Positions 11,808 to 40,699 of a stretch of DNA of 64,000 bases are shown piece after piece (within the stretch, counting starts at the first letter, position 1; each line of letters begins with the position of its first letter). A program made the position numbers and the translations under genes. Below the pieces are notes generated by a model. The model had not been told where the DNA came from. It did no database searches and saw nothing but the letters and a program-made list of their open reading frames with translations. Source of the DNA: Desulfurellaceae bacterium (GTDB taxonomy: Bacteria > Desulfobacterota > Binatia > Bin18); the NCBI GenBank assembly GCA_021296095.1, contig JAGWBB010000002.1, positions 21,463 to 85,462 of the forward strand. Direction: 5' to 3'.

Positions 11808-12404
11808 CTATTTGCTCAGCGTCTCACACGCCCCCATCAGCCATTTGACACTGGACAGCTCATCGTCGACCAGCGAGCCGAGCAACTCTTTGCTGTGCTG
11901 ATCGTCCTGGATCTGGCCGATGGCGTCGGTCAGCGGTTTGAGGATCTCGACCGGATCCTTGAGCTGAGCGGCAATGGACTGGAGCTTCTCGATGTCGTTG
12001 CTGTCGGTCGAGGCAAAGAACGGCAGCTCTTTCTCGCGCCGTTCGGCCGGCACGCTGCACTGCGGGGAGCCGCCCAGCTCGCGCAGCCGCTCTTCCAGAA
12101 TCTGAGCGTGGTAAGCCTCGCGCTGCTGCACCACCCGCAGACCGCCCTTGACACACTCCTGATCGCTGACTTCAACCCAGCGGTTCAGGTATTCAGCCGC
12201 AAAATCCTCGGCGCACCGAAACTCGTCCAGGATACCCAGGACCAGCTCTTTCTCGGTCTCATAGGATTTCCCGTTGTAGCTGTAGCCCTGGCTGGCCGGG
12301 TCGCTCCGCAGCTCTTGCATCTGTTCCTCAAACAGCTCGTCCGAGATCAAGCCCTTGCGGTAGGCCTTGAGCAGTTGTCGGGCCTCAAAATCTGTCGTCG
12401 CCAT
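11808..12404 (-). CDS. Hypothetical helical protein with an N-terminal SHOCT-like motif, possibly a ferritin-like fold
   Basis: AAGGAG ribosome-binding site 7 nt upstream of the ATG at 12404. KGLISDELFEEQM motif. No recognisable catalytic motif. Confidence 0.4.
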   Translation of the reverse strand: MATTDFEARQLLKAYRKGLISDELFEEQMQELRSDPASQGYSYNGKSYETEKELVLGILDEFRCAEDFAAEYLNRWVEVSDQECVKGGLRVVQQREAYHAQILEERLRELGGSPQCSVPAERREKELPFFASTDSNDIEKLQSIAAQLKDPVEILKPLTDAIGQIQDDQHSKELLGSLVDDELSSVKWLMGACETLSK

Positions 12405-12603
12405 AGTGTGGCTCCTTTCGTGTGATTCCTGCAAACGTATCCACGTGCATAGGAAATCGCCTGGGTCTTGTCAAGCAATCGCCTGTGTCTAGAACTTAGG
12501 CACAAGTCGGCACGGCTGCCTGTCTGCTGAGCAGCTTTTTTGCCCGGCTGGCCGAAAACCGGCTTTTCCCCGGGATTTTTACGCTTTTTACCACGGCGGC
12601 GGC

Positions 12604-12618
12604 TGGTACGGTCTTTGC
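12604..12618 (+). promoter_or_regulatory. Sigma-54-type promoter (TGGTAC-N5-TTGC) upstream of porin-glnK-amtB
   Basis: The GG and GC dinucleotides are spaced as in the TGGCAC-N5-TTGC consensus, about 68 nt upstream of the porin start. Confidence 0.5.
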
Positions 12619-12685
12619 TCATACAGAGTAGACTTCGGGCACAGGGCAGGTGCGTCTGAAGTCACACCAGACCAAGGAGGTAGGA

Positions 12686-13963
12686 ATGATGAAAAAATTT
12701 GTGGCGGCCAGTTGTTTAGGCGTGGCAGTCGTGTGGAGTCTGCCGGCCTGGGCAAATGGAGATGCGGTCGAGGAGAGCCTGCGCGCCCTCAATGAACGCA
12801 TCAAAGAACTCGAACAGGAGGTCGCGCGGCTCAAACAGCCGGAAGCCCCGGCGGCCCAAGCCGCAGACGCCGAAGCGCCGGACGCCTCGACCATGCTCGA
12901 CCAGCGCGTGACCGCCCTCGAAGACGGCCTCGGCCTGCTCAAGGGCATAGAGTTCGGCGGGATGGCCTACGCGTCCTACAACTACAACTTCAACACGCCG
13001 GATTCGGGCGGCAATGACCTCCGCATCTTTGACGTCAACCATAACGACTTCACCATGGACCTGTTGCAGCTCGAGATCTCGAAGCAGACCGACAGCGGCA
13101 TTGGCTTCCATACCGTTCTGGACTACGGCAAAACCGCCGGGCTCATTCAGTCCGACTGGGGCGGAGACCTCGCCCACAATTTCGAGATCCAGCAGGCCTA
13201 TGCGACCTATACCTGGGGCATCGGCAACGGCCTGGATATGCAGTTCGGAAAATTTGCCACCCTGCTGGGCGGTGAGGTGATCGAATCGCCCTACAACCCG
13301 AACATCTCCCGCTCGTTCATGTTCGGCTATGCCATTCCCTTCACCCATACCGGGGCGCTGTTTTCCTACGCCCTGACCGACATGCTCAGCCTGAGCGCCG
13401 GAGTGGTGAACGGCTGGGACAACGTGGCCGATAACAACAACGGCAAGACCTTTCTGGGCAGCCTGGGTCTGGAAATCGGCAACCTGGCCTGGACCTTCAA
13501 CGGGGTCTACGGCGCAGAGGACGATGACAGCGGCGCGTCGAAAACGGGTGTCTTCGACACGGTGCTGACCTACACGCCAATGGATCATGTCGATTTCCTG
13601 ATCAACTTCGACCACGGCACCGCCAGCGATGTCCTGGGTACAAAAAACGCGGAGTGGACCGGCGTGTCGGGCATCGTCAGCCTGGGCGGCGCCCTGCTGA
13701 ATCCGGGCTGGGAAAAGTGGTCGGTGGCGCTGCGTGGCGAGTGGTTCGCGGACGACGCCAACTACCGGACCGGCGCCTACGACGGGGACGGCAACGTCAA
13801 CCTGTGGGAAATCACCACAACGCTCAAGTGGGCGATGAGCGACAACCTGCAGGCGCGGCTCGAATACCGCCACGACGACGCCAACCGCCGGGTGTTCGGC
13901 AAAGACCACCGGTACAAGAAGAGTCAGAATTCGATGATCCTGGAATTCGCCTACCTCTTGTAA
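12686..13963 (+). CDS. Outer-membrane beta-barrel porin with signal peptide and coiled-coil leader; candidate ammonium/ammonia channel
   Basis: Signal peptide [23 protein letters not shown], an Ala/Glu coiled coil, alternating amphipathic beta-strands and a C-terminal aromatic residue. GGAGG ribosome-binding site. Confidence 0.6.
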
Positions 13964-14013
13964 GCCAGTATACGGGCGGGCGGACAGCCTGCCCCACCAC
14001 GAAGGAGACCGGC

Positions 14014-38630: not shown

Positions 38631-39027
38631 GTCATTCCCGCCAAACAGGGCTCGCACCACCGTGCTCTCAACGGCCCGGTCAATGATTTTTTCGGAGGTG
38701 TCAGGCAGAGCCTGGTTGTCCGGCGTGGGCTGCCCACCATGGTCGTGGGCATGCTCAAGCGAGGTATTGGGATCGAAAGGATCTTGTAAGCTGTTATGGG
38801 CCATACACATGCCCTCCAAGCAAGAGGATTCGTTCCGCTAAGAAAGAGAACGTGGGAGAGAAGAACAGCAATTCACGTGCCAAGACACCGCGCAGAGCGC
38901 GGAAAGCCAAAAGACACGGAAAAACAAGGCGTTTACCGCAGGGGAAACGAACACAGATCAAACGAGCCGGGCACAGGGGTGTTTGTGGAGCAACAGAAGA
39001 GCACAAAACTGTTCATTCAATAGGCAG

Positions 39028-39058
39028 TGTTTGCAATAAACAGTGTTTGCAATAAACA
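39028..39058. promoter_or_regulatory. Two tandem copies of the 15-bp palindrome TGTTTGCAATAAACA upstream of the cyn transporter operon; candidate operator
   Basis: Perfect inverted repeat TGTTT-N5-AAACA, duplicated head to tail, in the divergent region between the SBP gene and the porin gene. Confidence 0.5.
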
Positions 39059-39103
39059 GCGTGTGACTGCTCAAGACGAACCGCCACAACGCCTCGCTTG
39101 CAT

Positions 39104-39133
39104 AAAAAAAGGGAGCCGGAAGCTCCCCTTTTC
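39104..39133. terminator. Rho-independent terminator hairpin GGGAGC-CGGAA-GCTCCC with an A-tract on one side and a T-tract on the other (bidirectional), at the 3' end of the minus-strand porin gene
   Basis: GC-rich stem-loop flanked by AAAAAAA and CTTTT. Confidence 0.7.
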
Positions 39134-39154
39134 TACTGACCATCTGGAGACCGC

Positions 39155-40699
39155 TCAGATCCTCAGCGTCATCTCAATATAGCCAAAGTTGGCGTCGTCG
39201 CCCGGGAATATCCGGTCCACAATGCTGTCGCCGAACACGTGGGCAAAGAAGACATTGACGTTGACGTGCTTGTTGACCGTGTAGCTCAGCGTGGTTTCGA
39301 TGATCTGGAACAGACCGCGTTTGCCGAACGCCGGCCGACCGACATAGCCAAAGCCGGCCTGACGATCCTCCAGCGTTGCCCCGGCGCCCTGGTACCACAG
39401 GTCGTTTTTCTCGCTGACCCGAATGTTGTGAAAATCGGTCCGCCAGATCAGCCCGGTGAGCGGCCGGAGGATGAGCTGGAAGAAGGCGTCCTCGTTGTTC
39501 ATCAGGTTGTAGAAGGTGGTGAACGAGTACACCCGGGCGGTGGGCAGGATCTGGAAGAAGGTCTCGTGGTCGCCGTCGGTGGGATCGTCGTCACCCGAGC
39601 TGCGGTTATAGCCGATCCGCAGCCAGGGTTTCCAGGGCAGGCCCTGTGGCTGCCAACCCGCCTCGAAGGCCAGCGCCCAGGCCGCATGGTCCTGCCGGCC
39701 CCAGTCGCCACCCTGTCCGACGCCCCAGCCCATCAGGTCGATGGGGCCGGCGGGAGTGGGCAGCAGGTGGATCAGATGGCCACCCCCGGTATGGATGGCG
39801 ATATGCTGGCGGTCGGCGTCACGCACCGCAGCAGGCCTGTTATCGGTCGGCCGCAGACCACGTCCATCGGCATAATAGATGTAAAACAGACGGGCGTCGC
39901 TGGTATCGGCAAACGACGGCCGGGTTATGTTGAACGCGGTGTACAGCAGGTCGATATCGTCTATCATTTTGATGCCGGCCAGATCGAATCCGCCCTGGGT
40001 CGGGTGAGAGCCGTGGACGGTCAGGTTATAGGCGTCCCTGGTATAACTGAAAGTGAATCCGTCGTATGAGCGACCGGTGTGCGACCAGCCAAACGGACCG
40101 ATCAGGCGCTGCGAGACGCGAAAGCGCTTGATCCAGTCGATAGTCGGGTCCTGGCTCAACACCTCGGCACCCTCGGCGATCAGGTGGCGGCCGCCCTTCA
40201 GCCTGAGGCCGGGAATACCGAGGTTTTTCAGCGTCAGATGCGCCTGTTTGAGAAAAATACCCGAGTCGTTATTGCGACGGTTGTGGGCACGATAGACTGT
40301 GCCGAGGCCAAACGCGGCCTGAGGGGCGGGGGCGCTGGCGTCGTCGGGCAGACCCATGAGCGAGGAGTTCTGGGCCTCCACGTACAGGTCGAACAGCTCA
40401 TCCGACCACTTCAGCCCAAACTTGGCTACGGTTGCCGCGTAGGCATAGGAAGGGTCACCCGACGAGCCCTCAAACCAGTCCCAGAACTCTCCCCGCACCC
40501 GCAGGTTGGCCGAGAGCGACAGTTTGGAGGAAATCTGGGGCAGCGCCATGTCTGCCCGGAGCCCGGACGGCAGGAACGCAAACAGGCACAGCGCGGGCAG
40601 GCAGAACGCGAGCAGAAGAGCCCGTCCGGGCCGTTTGAGAATAGGCCGATCCCTCATAGGTGTCATATGAGAAAGCCAAAGGTGTCGTCGCATCAGCAT
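39155..40699 (-). CDS. Outer-membrane beta-barrel protein (alginate-export/porin-like) next to the cyn transporter
   Basis: Signal peptide (LLLAFCLPALCLFAFLPSGLRA), beta-strand periodicity and a C-terminal aromatic motif. An alternative start is at 40666. Confidence 0.6.
   Translation of the reverse strand: MLMRRHLWLSHMTPMRDRPILKRPGRALLLAFCLPALCLFAFLPSGLRADMALPQISSKLSLSANLRVRGEFWDWFEGSSGDPSYAYAATVAKFGLKWSDELFDLYVEAQNSSLMGLPDDASAPAPQAAFGLGTVYRAHNRRNNDSGIFLKQAHLTLKNLGIPGLRLKGGRHLIAEGAEVLSQDPTIDWIKRFRVSQRLIGPFGWSHTGRSYDGFTFSYTRDAYNLTVHGSHPTQGGFDLAGIKMIDDIDLLYTAFNITRPSFADTSDARLFYIYYADGRGLRPTDNRPAAVRDADRQHIAIHTGGGHLIHLLPTPAGPIDLMGWGVGQGGDWGRQDHAAWALAFEAGWQPQGLPWKPWLRIGYNRSSGDDDPTDGDHETFFQILPTARVYSFTTFYNLMNNEDAFFQLILRPLTGLIWRTDFHNIRVSEKNDLWYQGAGATLEDRQAGFGYVGRPAFGKRGLFQIIETTLSYTVNKHVNVNVFFAHVFGDSIVDRIFPGDDANFGYIEMTLRI

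Follow-up and report, generated by a model that had tools for sequence, protein, structure and literature searches.

Solute-specific porins are well known to be encoded next to the uptake systems that they serve, for example OprP with pst, or FmdC. The passage of ammonium, nitrite, nitrate and cyanate across the outer membrane at nanomolar to micromolar levels is usually ignored or ascribed to general porins. A 64-kb stretch of DNA from a soil-type Candidatus Binatia bacterium (the window, in which all coordinates given here are positions) raises the question of whether nitrogen compounds may be supplied with outer-membrane channels of their own. Three beta-barrel genes of the window, here called barrels 1, 2 and 3, all with signal-peptide-like N-termini in their translations, are found beside uptake modules for ammonium (glnK-amtB), urea (urtABCDE-ureAC) and cyanate (genes for a substrate-binding protein (SBP), cynS, a permease and an ATPase). 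The original prediction, made from the sequence alone, described a nitrogen-scavenging island with a dedicated porin at the head of each module. Gene calls and Pfam/NCBIfam scans confirmed this gene inventory, and each uptake module was found to be adjoined by a signal-peptide barrel gene of a different family. From gene content, operon structure, promoter type and conservation, and the co-conservation of barrels and modules, we consider with moderate confidence that the window is a sigma-54-dependent nitrogen-scavenging neighbourhood, in which each uptake system would be served by its own outer-membrane channel.

Promoters and transcription units of the three modules

Genes were called using a third-position G+C filter on open reading frames (ORFs; the G+C content of the window is ~63%), followed by Pfam and NCBIfam scans. 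Homologous loci fetched for comparison carry L-numbers. Sigma-54 sites were scored out of 11 against the consensus TGGCAC-N5-TTGCW, taking the best site in the 350 nucleotides (nt) upstream of each gene; random 350-nt windows reach at least 10/11 in ~1% of cases. The window contains four sites with at most one mismatch, three of which lie directly upstream of module heads. The total of sites with at most two mismatches is not above chance, and the promoter case therefore rests on position and conservation.

Barrel 1 (12686-13963, + strand; PF07642 BBP2, OmpL-like, E 5e-70) is followed by the P-II gene glnK (14014-14352, +; PF00543 E 1e-32, and the NCBIfam P-II model) and the ammonium transporter gene amtB (~14478-15911, +; PF00909 E 2e-113; TIGR00836, 397.6 bits against a cutoff of 343.3). 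The start of the island had been placed at 12404, which lies not in barrel 1 but in the upstream gene/intergenic region. A sigma-54 -24/-12 promoter, TGGTACGGTCTTTGCT (12604-12619, +; 10/11), is located upstream of barrel 1, and a site of at least 10/11 was found at this position in all 28 homologous loci, 62-75 nt upstream of the gene save for two exceptions. Barrel 2 (30156-31484, -; PF07396 Porin_O_P, E 3.5e-12) precedes the urea ATP-binding cassette (ABC) transporter genes urtABCDE (24404-30128, -; TIGR03407 UrtA 584 bits, TIGR03409 UrtB 411 bits, and Pfam), which begin with urtA (28818-30128, -) and urtB (~27137-28765, -) and continue with urtC, urtD and urtE. These are followed by ureA (24027-24329, -) and ureC (22299-24017, -), both identified from translation, gene call and urease context. 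The promoter upstream of barrel 2, TGGCCCGCTTTTTGCT (31538-31553, -; 10/11), has counterparts of at least 9/11 in 10 of 10 loci, 51-56 nt upstream (97 nt in one).

In related loci glnK and urtA, as interior genes, showed no such sigma-54 site in the 350 nt before their starts. The gap between barrel 1 and glnK is 11-84 nt in 28 loci (50 nt in the window) and that between barrel 2 and urtA is 27-112 nt in eight loci (27 nt in the window), and a terminator scan of both gaps gave no convincing terminator. Together, the short gaps, the upstream sigma-54 sites and the lack of a convincing terminator indicate that barrels 1 and 2 head predicted sigma-54-dependent operons with their uptake modules. 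On the other side of the barrel 2 promoter region lie the divergent genes ureB-ureG-ureD-ureE-ureF (31837-35024, +; PF00699 Urease_beta, and translations), an arrangement also seen in L099-L101. A sigma-54-like site upstream of ureB (31785-31800, +; 9/11) constitutes weaker evidence for a promoter there.

The claim that a barrel opens each operon, which stood for barrels 1 and 2, failed for barrel 3 (39155-40699, -; PF13372 Alginate_exp, E 3e-20). The cyanate module downstream of it comprises an NrtA/CynA-type SBP gene (37440-38819, -; NMT1_2 E 2e-82), cynS (36975-37418, -; Cyanate_lyase E 1.5e-35; TIGR00673, 187.8 bits against a cutoff of 113.3), a permease gene (~35975-36970, -; 180 bits with the ntrB model, below its cutoff of 209) and an ABC ATPase gene (35088-35885, -; TIGR01184, 304.2 bits against a cutoff of 291.8). 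Cyanase and an NrtA/CynA-family ABC transporter are thus both present, as in a cynABDS-type module. Just 3' of the barrel 3 stop codon is an intrinsic terminator, a hairpin with a U7 tail (39111-39127, -; -21.2 kcal/mol, z -3.1), and a hairpin with a T-run recurs after barrel 3 in five other cyn-linked loci (L009, L010, L011, L027 and L036). A perfect sigma-54 promoter without mismatches, TGGCACGTGAATTGCT (38867-38882, -), then precedes the SBP gene, its counterparts scoring 10-11/11 in 6 of 6 close loci, 28-54 nt upstream. Because this terminator and promoter lie between them, barrel 3 is predicted to be a transcription unit of its own in the window, outside the cyn operon. In two more distant loci, L038 and L042, barrel 3 and the SBP gene are just 10-42 nt apart, an operon-like spacing. 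A putative weak sigma-54 site, TGGTCTCTCTTTTGCT (40738-40753, -; 8/11, read by eye), is located ~38 nt before the barrel 3 start, and in about 22 Binatia loci sites of 9-10/11 occupy the equivalent position, 31-53 nt upstream of barrel 3.

The intergenic region before the SBP gene also carries the palindrome TGTTTATTGCAAACA, present as a perfect tandem direct repeat of two copies at 39028-39058, with a degenerate third copy at ~39011-39026; the cyn sigma-54 promoter follows 145-190 nt downstream of the repeat. No copy without mismatches occurs elsewhere in the window, and the repeat was not found in the orthologous cyn promoters of L009-L013. It may have arisen by recent duplication, or it may be an activator site particular to this strain.

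Gene partners of the three barrel families

Barrel 1 matches the PF07642 BBP2 profile with 236.9 bits (gathering threshold 26.2), its residues 100-435 aligning with positions 2-337 of 339. Its 120 best homologues are mostly from Binatia, and the most divergent of these (53-60% identity) keep glnE, a ferritin-like gene, barrel 1, glnK, amtB and the kinase gene, as well as the activator gene in all but one. The complete arrangement was also seen in 20 Binatia loci fetched via barrel 3. An exhaustive search of the BBP2 family returned 3,979 cluster representatives at E <= 1e-3, including one at 34% identity in which the BBP2 gene is followed by genes for P-II and an ammonium transporter. Metagenomes were then scanned with a seven-sequence alignment led by this member, giving 80 distant loci with 30-55% identity to the lead. 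Although many of the contigs are truncated, glnK and/or amtB lie within 3 kb in 41 of the 80, in the orders BBP2-glnK-amtB, BBP2-amtB-glnK and amtB-glnK-BBP2, and nir, nas, nrt and urt markers were found in none of them. A sigma-54 site of at least 9/11, 58-82 nt upstream, is present in 13 of the 24 distant loci in which BBP2 leads, against 0 of the 13 in which it comes after glnK/amtB. Barrel 1 is on this evidence a candidate ammonium channel.

The structure model of barrel 1 is of low confidence (mean predicted local distance difference test (pLDDT) score 63); it has helices at 27-49 and 67-84 and ~16 strands. Its best PDB matches are the Pseudomonas aeruginosa phosphate/pyrophosphate porins OprP and OprO (2o4v, 4rjw; template modelling (TM) scores 0.58-0.60, 12-13% identity), with OmpM1 (8bys) and DcaP of Acinetobacter baumannii (6eus) at ranks 14 and 17. 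The coiled-coil leader proposed for barrels 1 and 2 was supported by a 3-4 hydrophobic heptad pattern read by eye from both translations and, for barrel 1, by the two model helices. DcaP and OmpM1 both have an extension at the N-terminus that lies in the periplasm. In DcaP, a periplasmic N-terminal coiled coil stabilises the trimer, and by analogy a similar role is plausible for the two leaders; DcaP and OmpM1 belong to other families than barrels 1 and 2 and have other substrates. OprP and OprO offer a parallel in being solute-specific and in sharing their regulation with an inner-membrane uptake system of high affinity; they resemble barrel 1 in fold and barrel 2 by its Porin_O_P match. Barrel 1 differs from these porins, known for an anion-binding arginine ladder, in its strongly acidic composition. 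The mature protein has an isoelectric point (pI) of 4.4, with 56 D+E against 27 K+R, and the low-confidence model places 16 acidic and 7 basic residues on strands facing the lumen. This acidity is compatible with a preference for cations without being specific to it.

Two porins with a proposed ammonium role have been described. A BBP2-domain porin of Kuenenia stuttgartiensis, KSMBR1_3177, is strongly induced by ammonium limitation, and its authors proposed a role in ammonium influx (PMC7438415). PorA (EQU24_19165), a 16-strand porin of M. buryatense, aids ammonium uptake according to genetic evidence in a 2025 preprint, whose authors state that an ammonium-specific porin had yet to be characterised (bioRxiv 10.1101/2025.01.28.635327). 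KSMBR1_3177 shares both the BBP2 domain and the proposed role with barrel 1; PorA shares the proposed role only, its family and genomic context being absent from the preprint. A link to glnK-amtB, as seen for barrel 1, has been reported for neither of them.

Barrel 2 scores 46.7 bits with the Porin_O_P hidden Markov model (HMM; threshold 20.9). In 5 of 5 independent divergent homologues (52-66% identity), from lineages that include Methylomirabilota and 'Deltaproteobacteria' metagenome-assembled genomes (MAGs), it precedes urtABCDE and the urease genes. The arrangement is kept in L097-L101, L183 and L184 and in the Binatia loci L010, L011 and L062. Co-conservation, of barrel 1 with glnK-amtB as of barrel 2 with urt/ure, thus extends well past close relatives. 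The barrel gene stands alongside genes for urea uptake and hydrolysis, which is the placement of FmdC, reported as an outer-membrane porin of Methylophilus methylotrophus that is inducible by short-chain amides and urea; fmdC alongside urea uptake genes has been described in comammox Nitrospira and in Methylophilus. Among the NCBIfam models barrel 2 matches ExtI alone, and weakly; according to the ExtI paper, FmdC is the characterised porin closest to ExtI. Barrel 2 is likened to FmdC by gene placement, as a signal-peptide barrel directly before urtABCDE and urease genes, and differs from it in heading a predicted sigma-54-dependent urt-ureAC operon and in its N-terminal coiled-coil leader. 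By this analogy it is an FmdC-like candidate channel for urea and short amides and, since the arrangement has already been annotated as fmdC, it adds a member to a described porin type.

Two observations on the urea loci stand apart from the barrel. UrtB (27137-28765, -) carries a ~250-residue N-terminal HEAT-repeat extension behind a signal-like hydrophobic segment, and the UrtB proteins of L097-L101, L183 and L184 show the same combination of HEAT_2 with BPD_transp_2. In L097, a gene for a receiver-ANTAR (AmiR/NasT-like) antiterminator (6183-6665) lies before the barrel 2-urt operon, which there is not sigma-54/NtrC-linked; control of the porin-urt unit may differ between lineages.

Barrel 3 matches PF13372 with 72.7 bits (threshold 25.2), and its model has 18 strands, which score 70-85 against a mean pLDDT of 56. 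AlgE of P. aeruginosa, which belongs to the same Pfam family and has the same 18-strand fold, is the best PDB match (3rbh, 4afk and others; TM 0.53-0.62, 10-11% identity). A genome scan yielded 80 loci from Binatia, Methylomirabilota, Acidobacteriota, Abditibacteriaceae, Gemmatimonadaceae and others, over which marker searches were made. The proposal that barrel 3 is dedicated to cyanate was not supported by this survey: cynS is present in 8 of the 80 loci, all from Binatia, and nitrate/nitrite genes or an Nrt-type ABC transporter are frequent. An Nrt/Cyn-type ABC transporter occurs in 19 loci (11 of them without cynS), a nirBD, nasA, narK or NarH-like gene in 25, and any nitrogen oxyanion gene within 10 kb in 35. 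The most constant direct partner of the family is an ABC importer of the nitrate/nitrite/cyanate class, an Nrt/Cyn-type transporter directly adjoining barrel 3 on the same strand in 21 of the 80 loci (12 with barrel 3 after the ATPase gene, nine before the SBP gene).

Individual homologues illustrate this range of contexts. One with 57% identity is divergent from nirB-nirD-MFS-nasA and has UbiE-methyltransferase and PepX neighbours as in the window, one with 56% identity comes after NarH-like, EB_dh and NarJ genes, and one with 76% identity lies a few kb past glnK-amtB-kinase-activator, without cyn genes. Two further loci have, immediately downstream of barrel 3, either NrfA (L064) or a NirK-like multicopper oxidase that contains a cupredoxin domain, and in L010 barrel 3 is situated between nirBD-nasA and the cyn module. 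The common denominator of these contexts is a small nitrogen oxyanion and not cyanate itself, and barrel 3 is better read as a candidate channel for such oxyanions (cyanate/nitrite/nitrate) than as a cyanate-specific one. These partners (Nrt/Cyn ABC transporters, nirBD-nasA, narK, Nar/Nxr-like genes, NrfA and the NirK-like oxidase) also set barrel 3 apart from AlgE; no alg8/44/K/X-type or other polysaccharide synthesis or secretion genes were present in the window or in the annotated barrel 3 neighbourhoods. In Bacteroides thetaiotaomicron, BT1414, of the 'alginate export family', is part of the nrfAH operon BT1414-1418, and the paper gives it no functional interpretation (PMC10434189). By family label and operon context it resembles the L064 homologue, in that an Alginate_exp-family gene accompanies a periplasmic nitrite reductase.

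Some Binatia genomes carry two barrel 3 paralogues (L018/L034, L023/L067 and L020/L032; 77-80% identity to the window), one following glnK-amtB-kinase-activator and the other with unrelated neighbours. At the similarly placed locus L015, these unrelated neighbours are genes for a type IV prepilin peptidase and for a Tll0287-like protein.

The original prediction had also held the three barrels to be unrelated in sequence. This stood for barrel 3, which is unrelated to barrel 2, and was weakened for barrels 1 and 2. BLASTP between the latter pair gave nothing significant, while hhalign detected a weak signal (62% probability, E 7.5e-5, 77 columns), and some barrel 1 homologues match both PF07642 and PF07396, barrel 1 itself having no PF07396 match. 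With the OprP/OprO matches, barrels 1 and 2 are probably remote relatives sharing an OprP-like fold. PDB sequence searches with barrels 2 and 3 returned no relatives.

Proposed regulation and alternative explanations

Downstream of amtB are genes for a GAF-HisKA-HATPase sensor kinase (15993-17183, +; Pfam) and an NtrC-family sigma-54 activator with receiver, AAA+ and HTH_8 domains (17198-18592, +; Pfam). The activator has an NtrC-like domain architecture and scores below the NtrC equivalog level (TIGR01818, 455 bits against a cutoff of 558.6). The kinase is only weakly similar to NtrB and is not an NtrB-type PAS partner, its sensor domain being GAF and its NR(II) model score 109 bits against a cutoff of 240. 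Promoters of the -24/-12 type lie upstream of the target operons, as in a sigma-54 nitrogen regulon. Upstream of barrel 1, footprinting delineated a conserved block, TTAGGCA...TGC...GCA, ~60-110 nt before the -24 element, which is too degenerate to be searched for elsewhere. k-mer sharing among the promoters of the window was limited to trivial overlaps, which arise because ureB and barrel 2 use one intergenic region.

We propose that, upon nitrogen limitation, the GAF kinase and the NtrC-family activator turn on the sigma-54 promoters of barrel 1-glnK-amtB (possibly with read-through into the kinase and activator genes), barrel 2-urtABCDE-ureAC, ureBGDEF, the cynA-like SBP-cynS-permease-ATPase unit and, probably, barrel 3. 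Each barrel would then make the outer membrane more permeable to the solute of the neighbouring inner-membrane system, so that this membrane would not limit high-affinity uptake at very low concentrations. Barrel 1, which as a BBP2 porin combines acidic composition, a fold like that of OprP and a coiled-coil stalk in the periplasm, would pass ammonium, and the FmdC-like Porin_O_P barrel 2 would pass urea and perhaps short amides. The 18-strand, AlgE-fold barrel 3 would pass small nitrogen oxyanions, cyanate here and nitrite or nitrate where it accompanies Nrt/Nir/Nas systems elsewhere. In this scheme the acting regulator, the induction under nitrogen limitation and the channel activities are proposed, and we infer solute selectivity from gene context, promoters and, for barrel 1, acidic composition.

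Several findings weigh against this scheme. No activator-binding motif common to the promoters was found by k-mer sharing, footprinting or repeat search, and the claim of co-regulation is accordingly supported in part: sigma-54 promoters are shared and an NtrC-family activator is encoded next to them, which is consistent with it, while control by one and the same activator stays inferred since no shared site was demonstrated. The best sigma-54 match of barrel 3 in the window is no better than 8/11. About half of the distant BBP2 loci have no glnK/amtB link, 27 of the 80 barrel 3 loci lack any nitrogen-related neighbour even with the NrfA and NirK-like loci counted as linked (some ten of the 27 are on short contigs), and some Binatia carry a second barrel 3 paralogue with unrelated neighbours. 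The lumen of barrel 3 has no net basic charge in a crude strand analysis (11 K/R against 10 D/E, pI 6.0), the charge of barrel 1 is not decisive, acidity being typical of general porins too, and the models of both barrels are of low confidence.

The missing neighbours and the common acidity would also fit barrels that are general diffusion porins up-regulated in nitrogen starvation, without solute specificity, and the fold of barrel 1 does resemble ordinary 16-strand trimeric porins as well as OprP. We regard this as rather improbable. The three families each keep their own partner over large evolutionary distances, and cross-association is essentially nil, with nir, nas, nrt and urt absent from the distant BBP2 loci and barrel 2 always found with urt; such fidelity is hard to square with interchangeable channels. 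The characterised relative FmdC is, moreover, reported to be inducible by amides and urea. A cyanate-specific barrel 3, dedicated to the cynS/ABC module, is unlikely in our judgement. It is favoured by the position of barrel 3 directly upstream of the cyn SBP gene on the same strand in the window, L009-L013, L027, L036 and L038, by the operon-like spacing in L038 and L042, and by the Binatia paralogues (L018/L034, L023/L067), of which the cyn-linked copy could have specialised. Yet cynS is confined to few loci, all from Binatia, the orthologous slot, with UbiE-methyltransferase/PepX on one side, holds nirBD-narK-nasA in L004-L006, and L010 has both kinds of neighbour flanking the barrel. In addition, loci with and without cyn linkage are mixed across the identity bands, and the terminator and separate promoter uncouple barrel 3 from cyn in the window.

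Taking the Pfam names literally would make barrel 2 a phosphate porin and barrel 3 an exopolysaccharide exporter, with nitrogen genes beside them by chance. The PF07396 and PF13372 matches do exceed their gathering thresholds, and AlgE is the best structural match of barrel 3; nevertheless, we consider this reading very improbable. The porin-family HMM search, which assigned the barrels to BBP2, Porin_O_P and Alginate_exp, was accompanied by no phosphate or alginate gene context: in every locus examined the neighbours of barrels 1 and 2 are glnK-amtB or urtABCDE-ure, without pst/pho linkage, and no pst/pho or polysaccharide synthesis/export genes adjoin the barrels in the window or the annotated neighbourhoods. 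Barrel 3 is barely identical to AlgE, the Porin_O_P score of barrel 2 is low, and both the adjacency to urt or Nrt/Nir/Nas/Cyn genes and the sigma-54 promoters are conserved. Dedicated channels for ammonium, urea and small nitrogen oxyanions remain our preferred reading of the locus.

Surrounding genes and significance

Among the genome loci, L009 is closest, with 97% identity to barrel 3 and unchanged synteny; it belongs to a Candidatus Binatia MAG, and the dozen loci ranking after it are likewise from Candidatus Binatia. The term island applies in part. In Binatia, the block from barrel 1 to the activator gene and barrel 3 are conserved chromosomal neighbours, the urea and cyn cassettes between them vary, and in L001 and similar relatives the interval lacks both cassettes. 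Three unrelated genes (18983-21950, mixed strands) separate the ammonium and urea modules, and the G+C content dips to 0.59 at 20000-22000, where the genes present are a truncated one for an Eco57I-type methylase (21195-21950) and one for a CMAS-family methyltransferase. This dip and the absence of the cassettes from relatives suggest that the urea and cyn cassettes were inserted between the ammonium module and barrel 3.

Upstream of barrel 1, glnE (glutamine synthetase adenylyltransferase; 8653-11757, -; Pfam GlnE E 2e-130) is a conserved divergent neighbour of the operon, its position being kept in L089-L096. Between the two is a gene for a 208-aa protein (11808-12434, -) that has no Pfam match in the window and weak ferritin matches in orthologues. 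In Binatia loci it is always divergent from barrel 1 and adjoins glnE, and its product may belong to the nitrogen regulon. Beyond barrel 3, at 45381-49527 (+), two MoeA-type molybdopterin genes come after a CN_hydrolase gene, and one of the two includes a fused PBP-like domain; this set could be connected with a molybdoenzyme, for example NasA, whose gene lies in another part of the genome. The region 50800-59700 has a low G+C content (0.52-0.60), no ORFs with the third-position bias of the host and no match to rRNA or other Rfam families, and may be foreign DNA. An Rfam match to 5_ureB_sRNA (RF02514; 23567-23864, +, 95 bits) lies antisense within ureC; it was rejected as a real antisense RNA, the simplest reading being a match to conserved urease coding sequence, and falls outside the system described here.

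Channels of this kind had been called poorly characterised, which does not apply to the urea porin, already described beside urea genes as FmdC, and does apply to the families of barrels 1 and 3. What is new is the apparent role of a BBP2 subfamily as the conserved first gene of predicted sigma-54 glnK-amtB operons well beyond Binatia, and the tendency of an AlgE-fold subfamily to travel with nitrite, nitrate and cyanate systems across phyla. In the openly searchable literature, closed-access papers lying outside its scope, no paper using the terms nitrite, nitrate or cyanate porin was found, nor more than passing mentions of these BBP2 and AlgE-fold gene associations. We tentatively suggest that the two subfamilies could be widespread, unrecognised solute-selective channels, for ammonium and for nitrite/nitrate/cyanate respectively, co-transcribed or co-regulated with their inner-membrane partners. 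These partners may be Amt/GlnK for the BBP2 subfamily and Nrt/Cyn ABC transporters, NarK and nitrite/nitrate reductases for the AlgE-fold subfamily, an assignment held with the same reserve.

The analysis nominates two concrete and widespread families with clear genetic partners and a common promoter type, and so opens the question to direct experiment. Their recognition would correct misleading database names, such as 'Alginate export family protein' and 'phosphate-selective porin', on genes of nitrogen-assimilation operons. It would also allow traits to be predicted better for uncultured lineages from soil, Binatia among them, as well as for the genomes of nitrifiers and anammox bacteria. 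If the suggestion is true, the passage of inorganic nitrogen across the outer membrane would be a dedicated, nitrogen-regulated step rather than leakage through general porins, in a range of bacteria spanning Binatota, Methylomirabilota, Acidobacteriota and Abditibacteriota, and possibly Planctomycetota and Bacteroidota.

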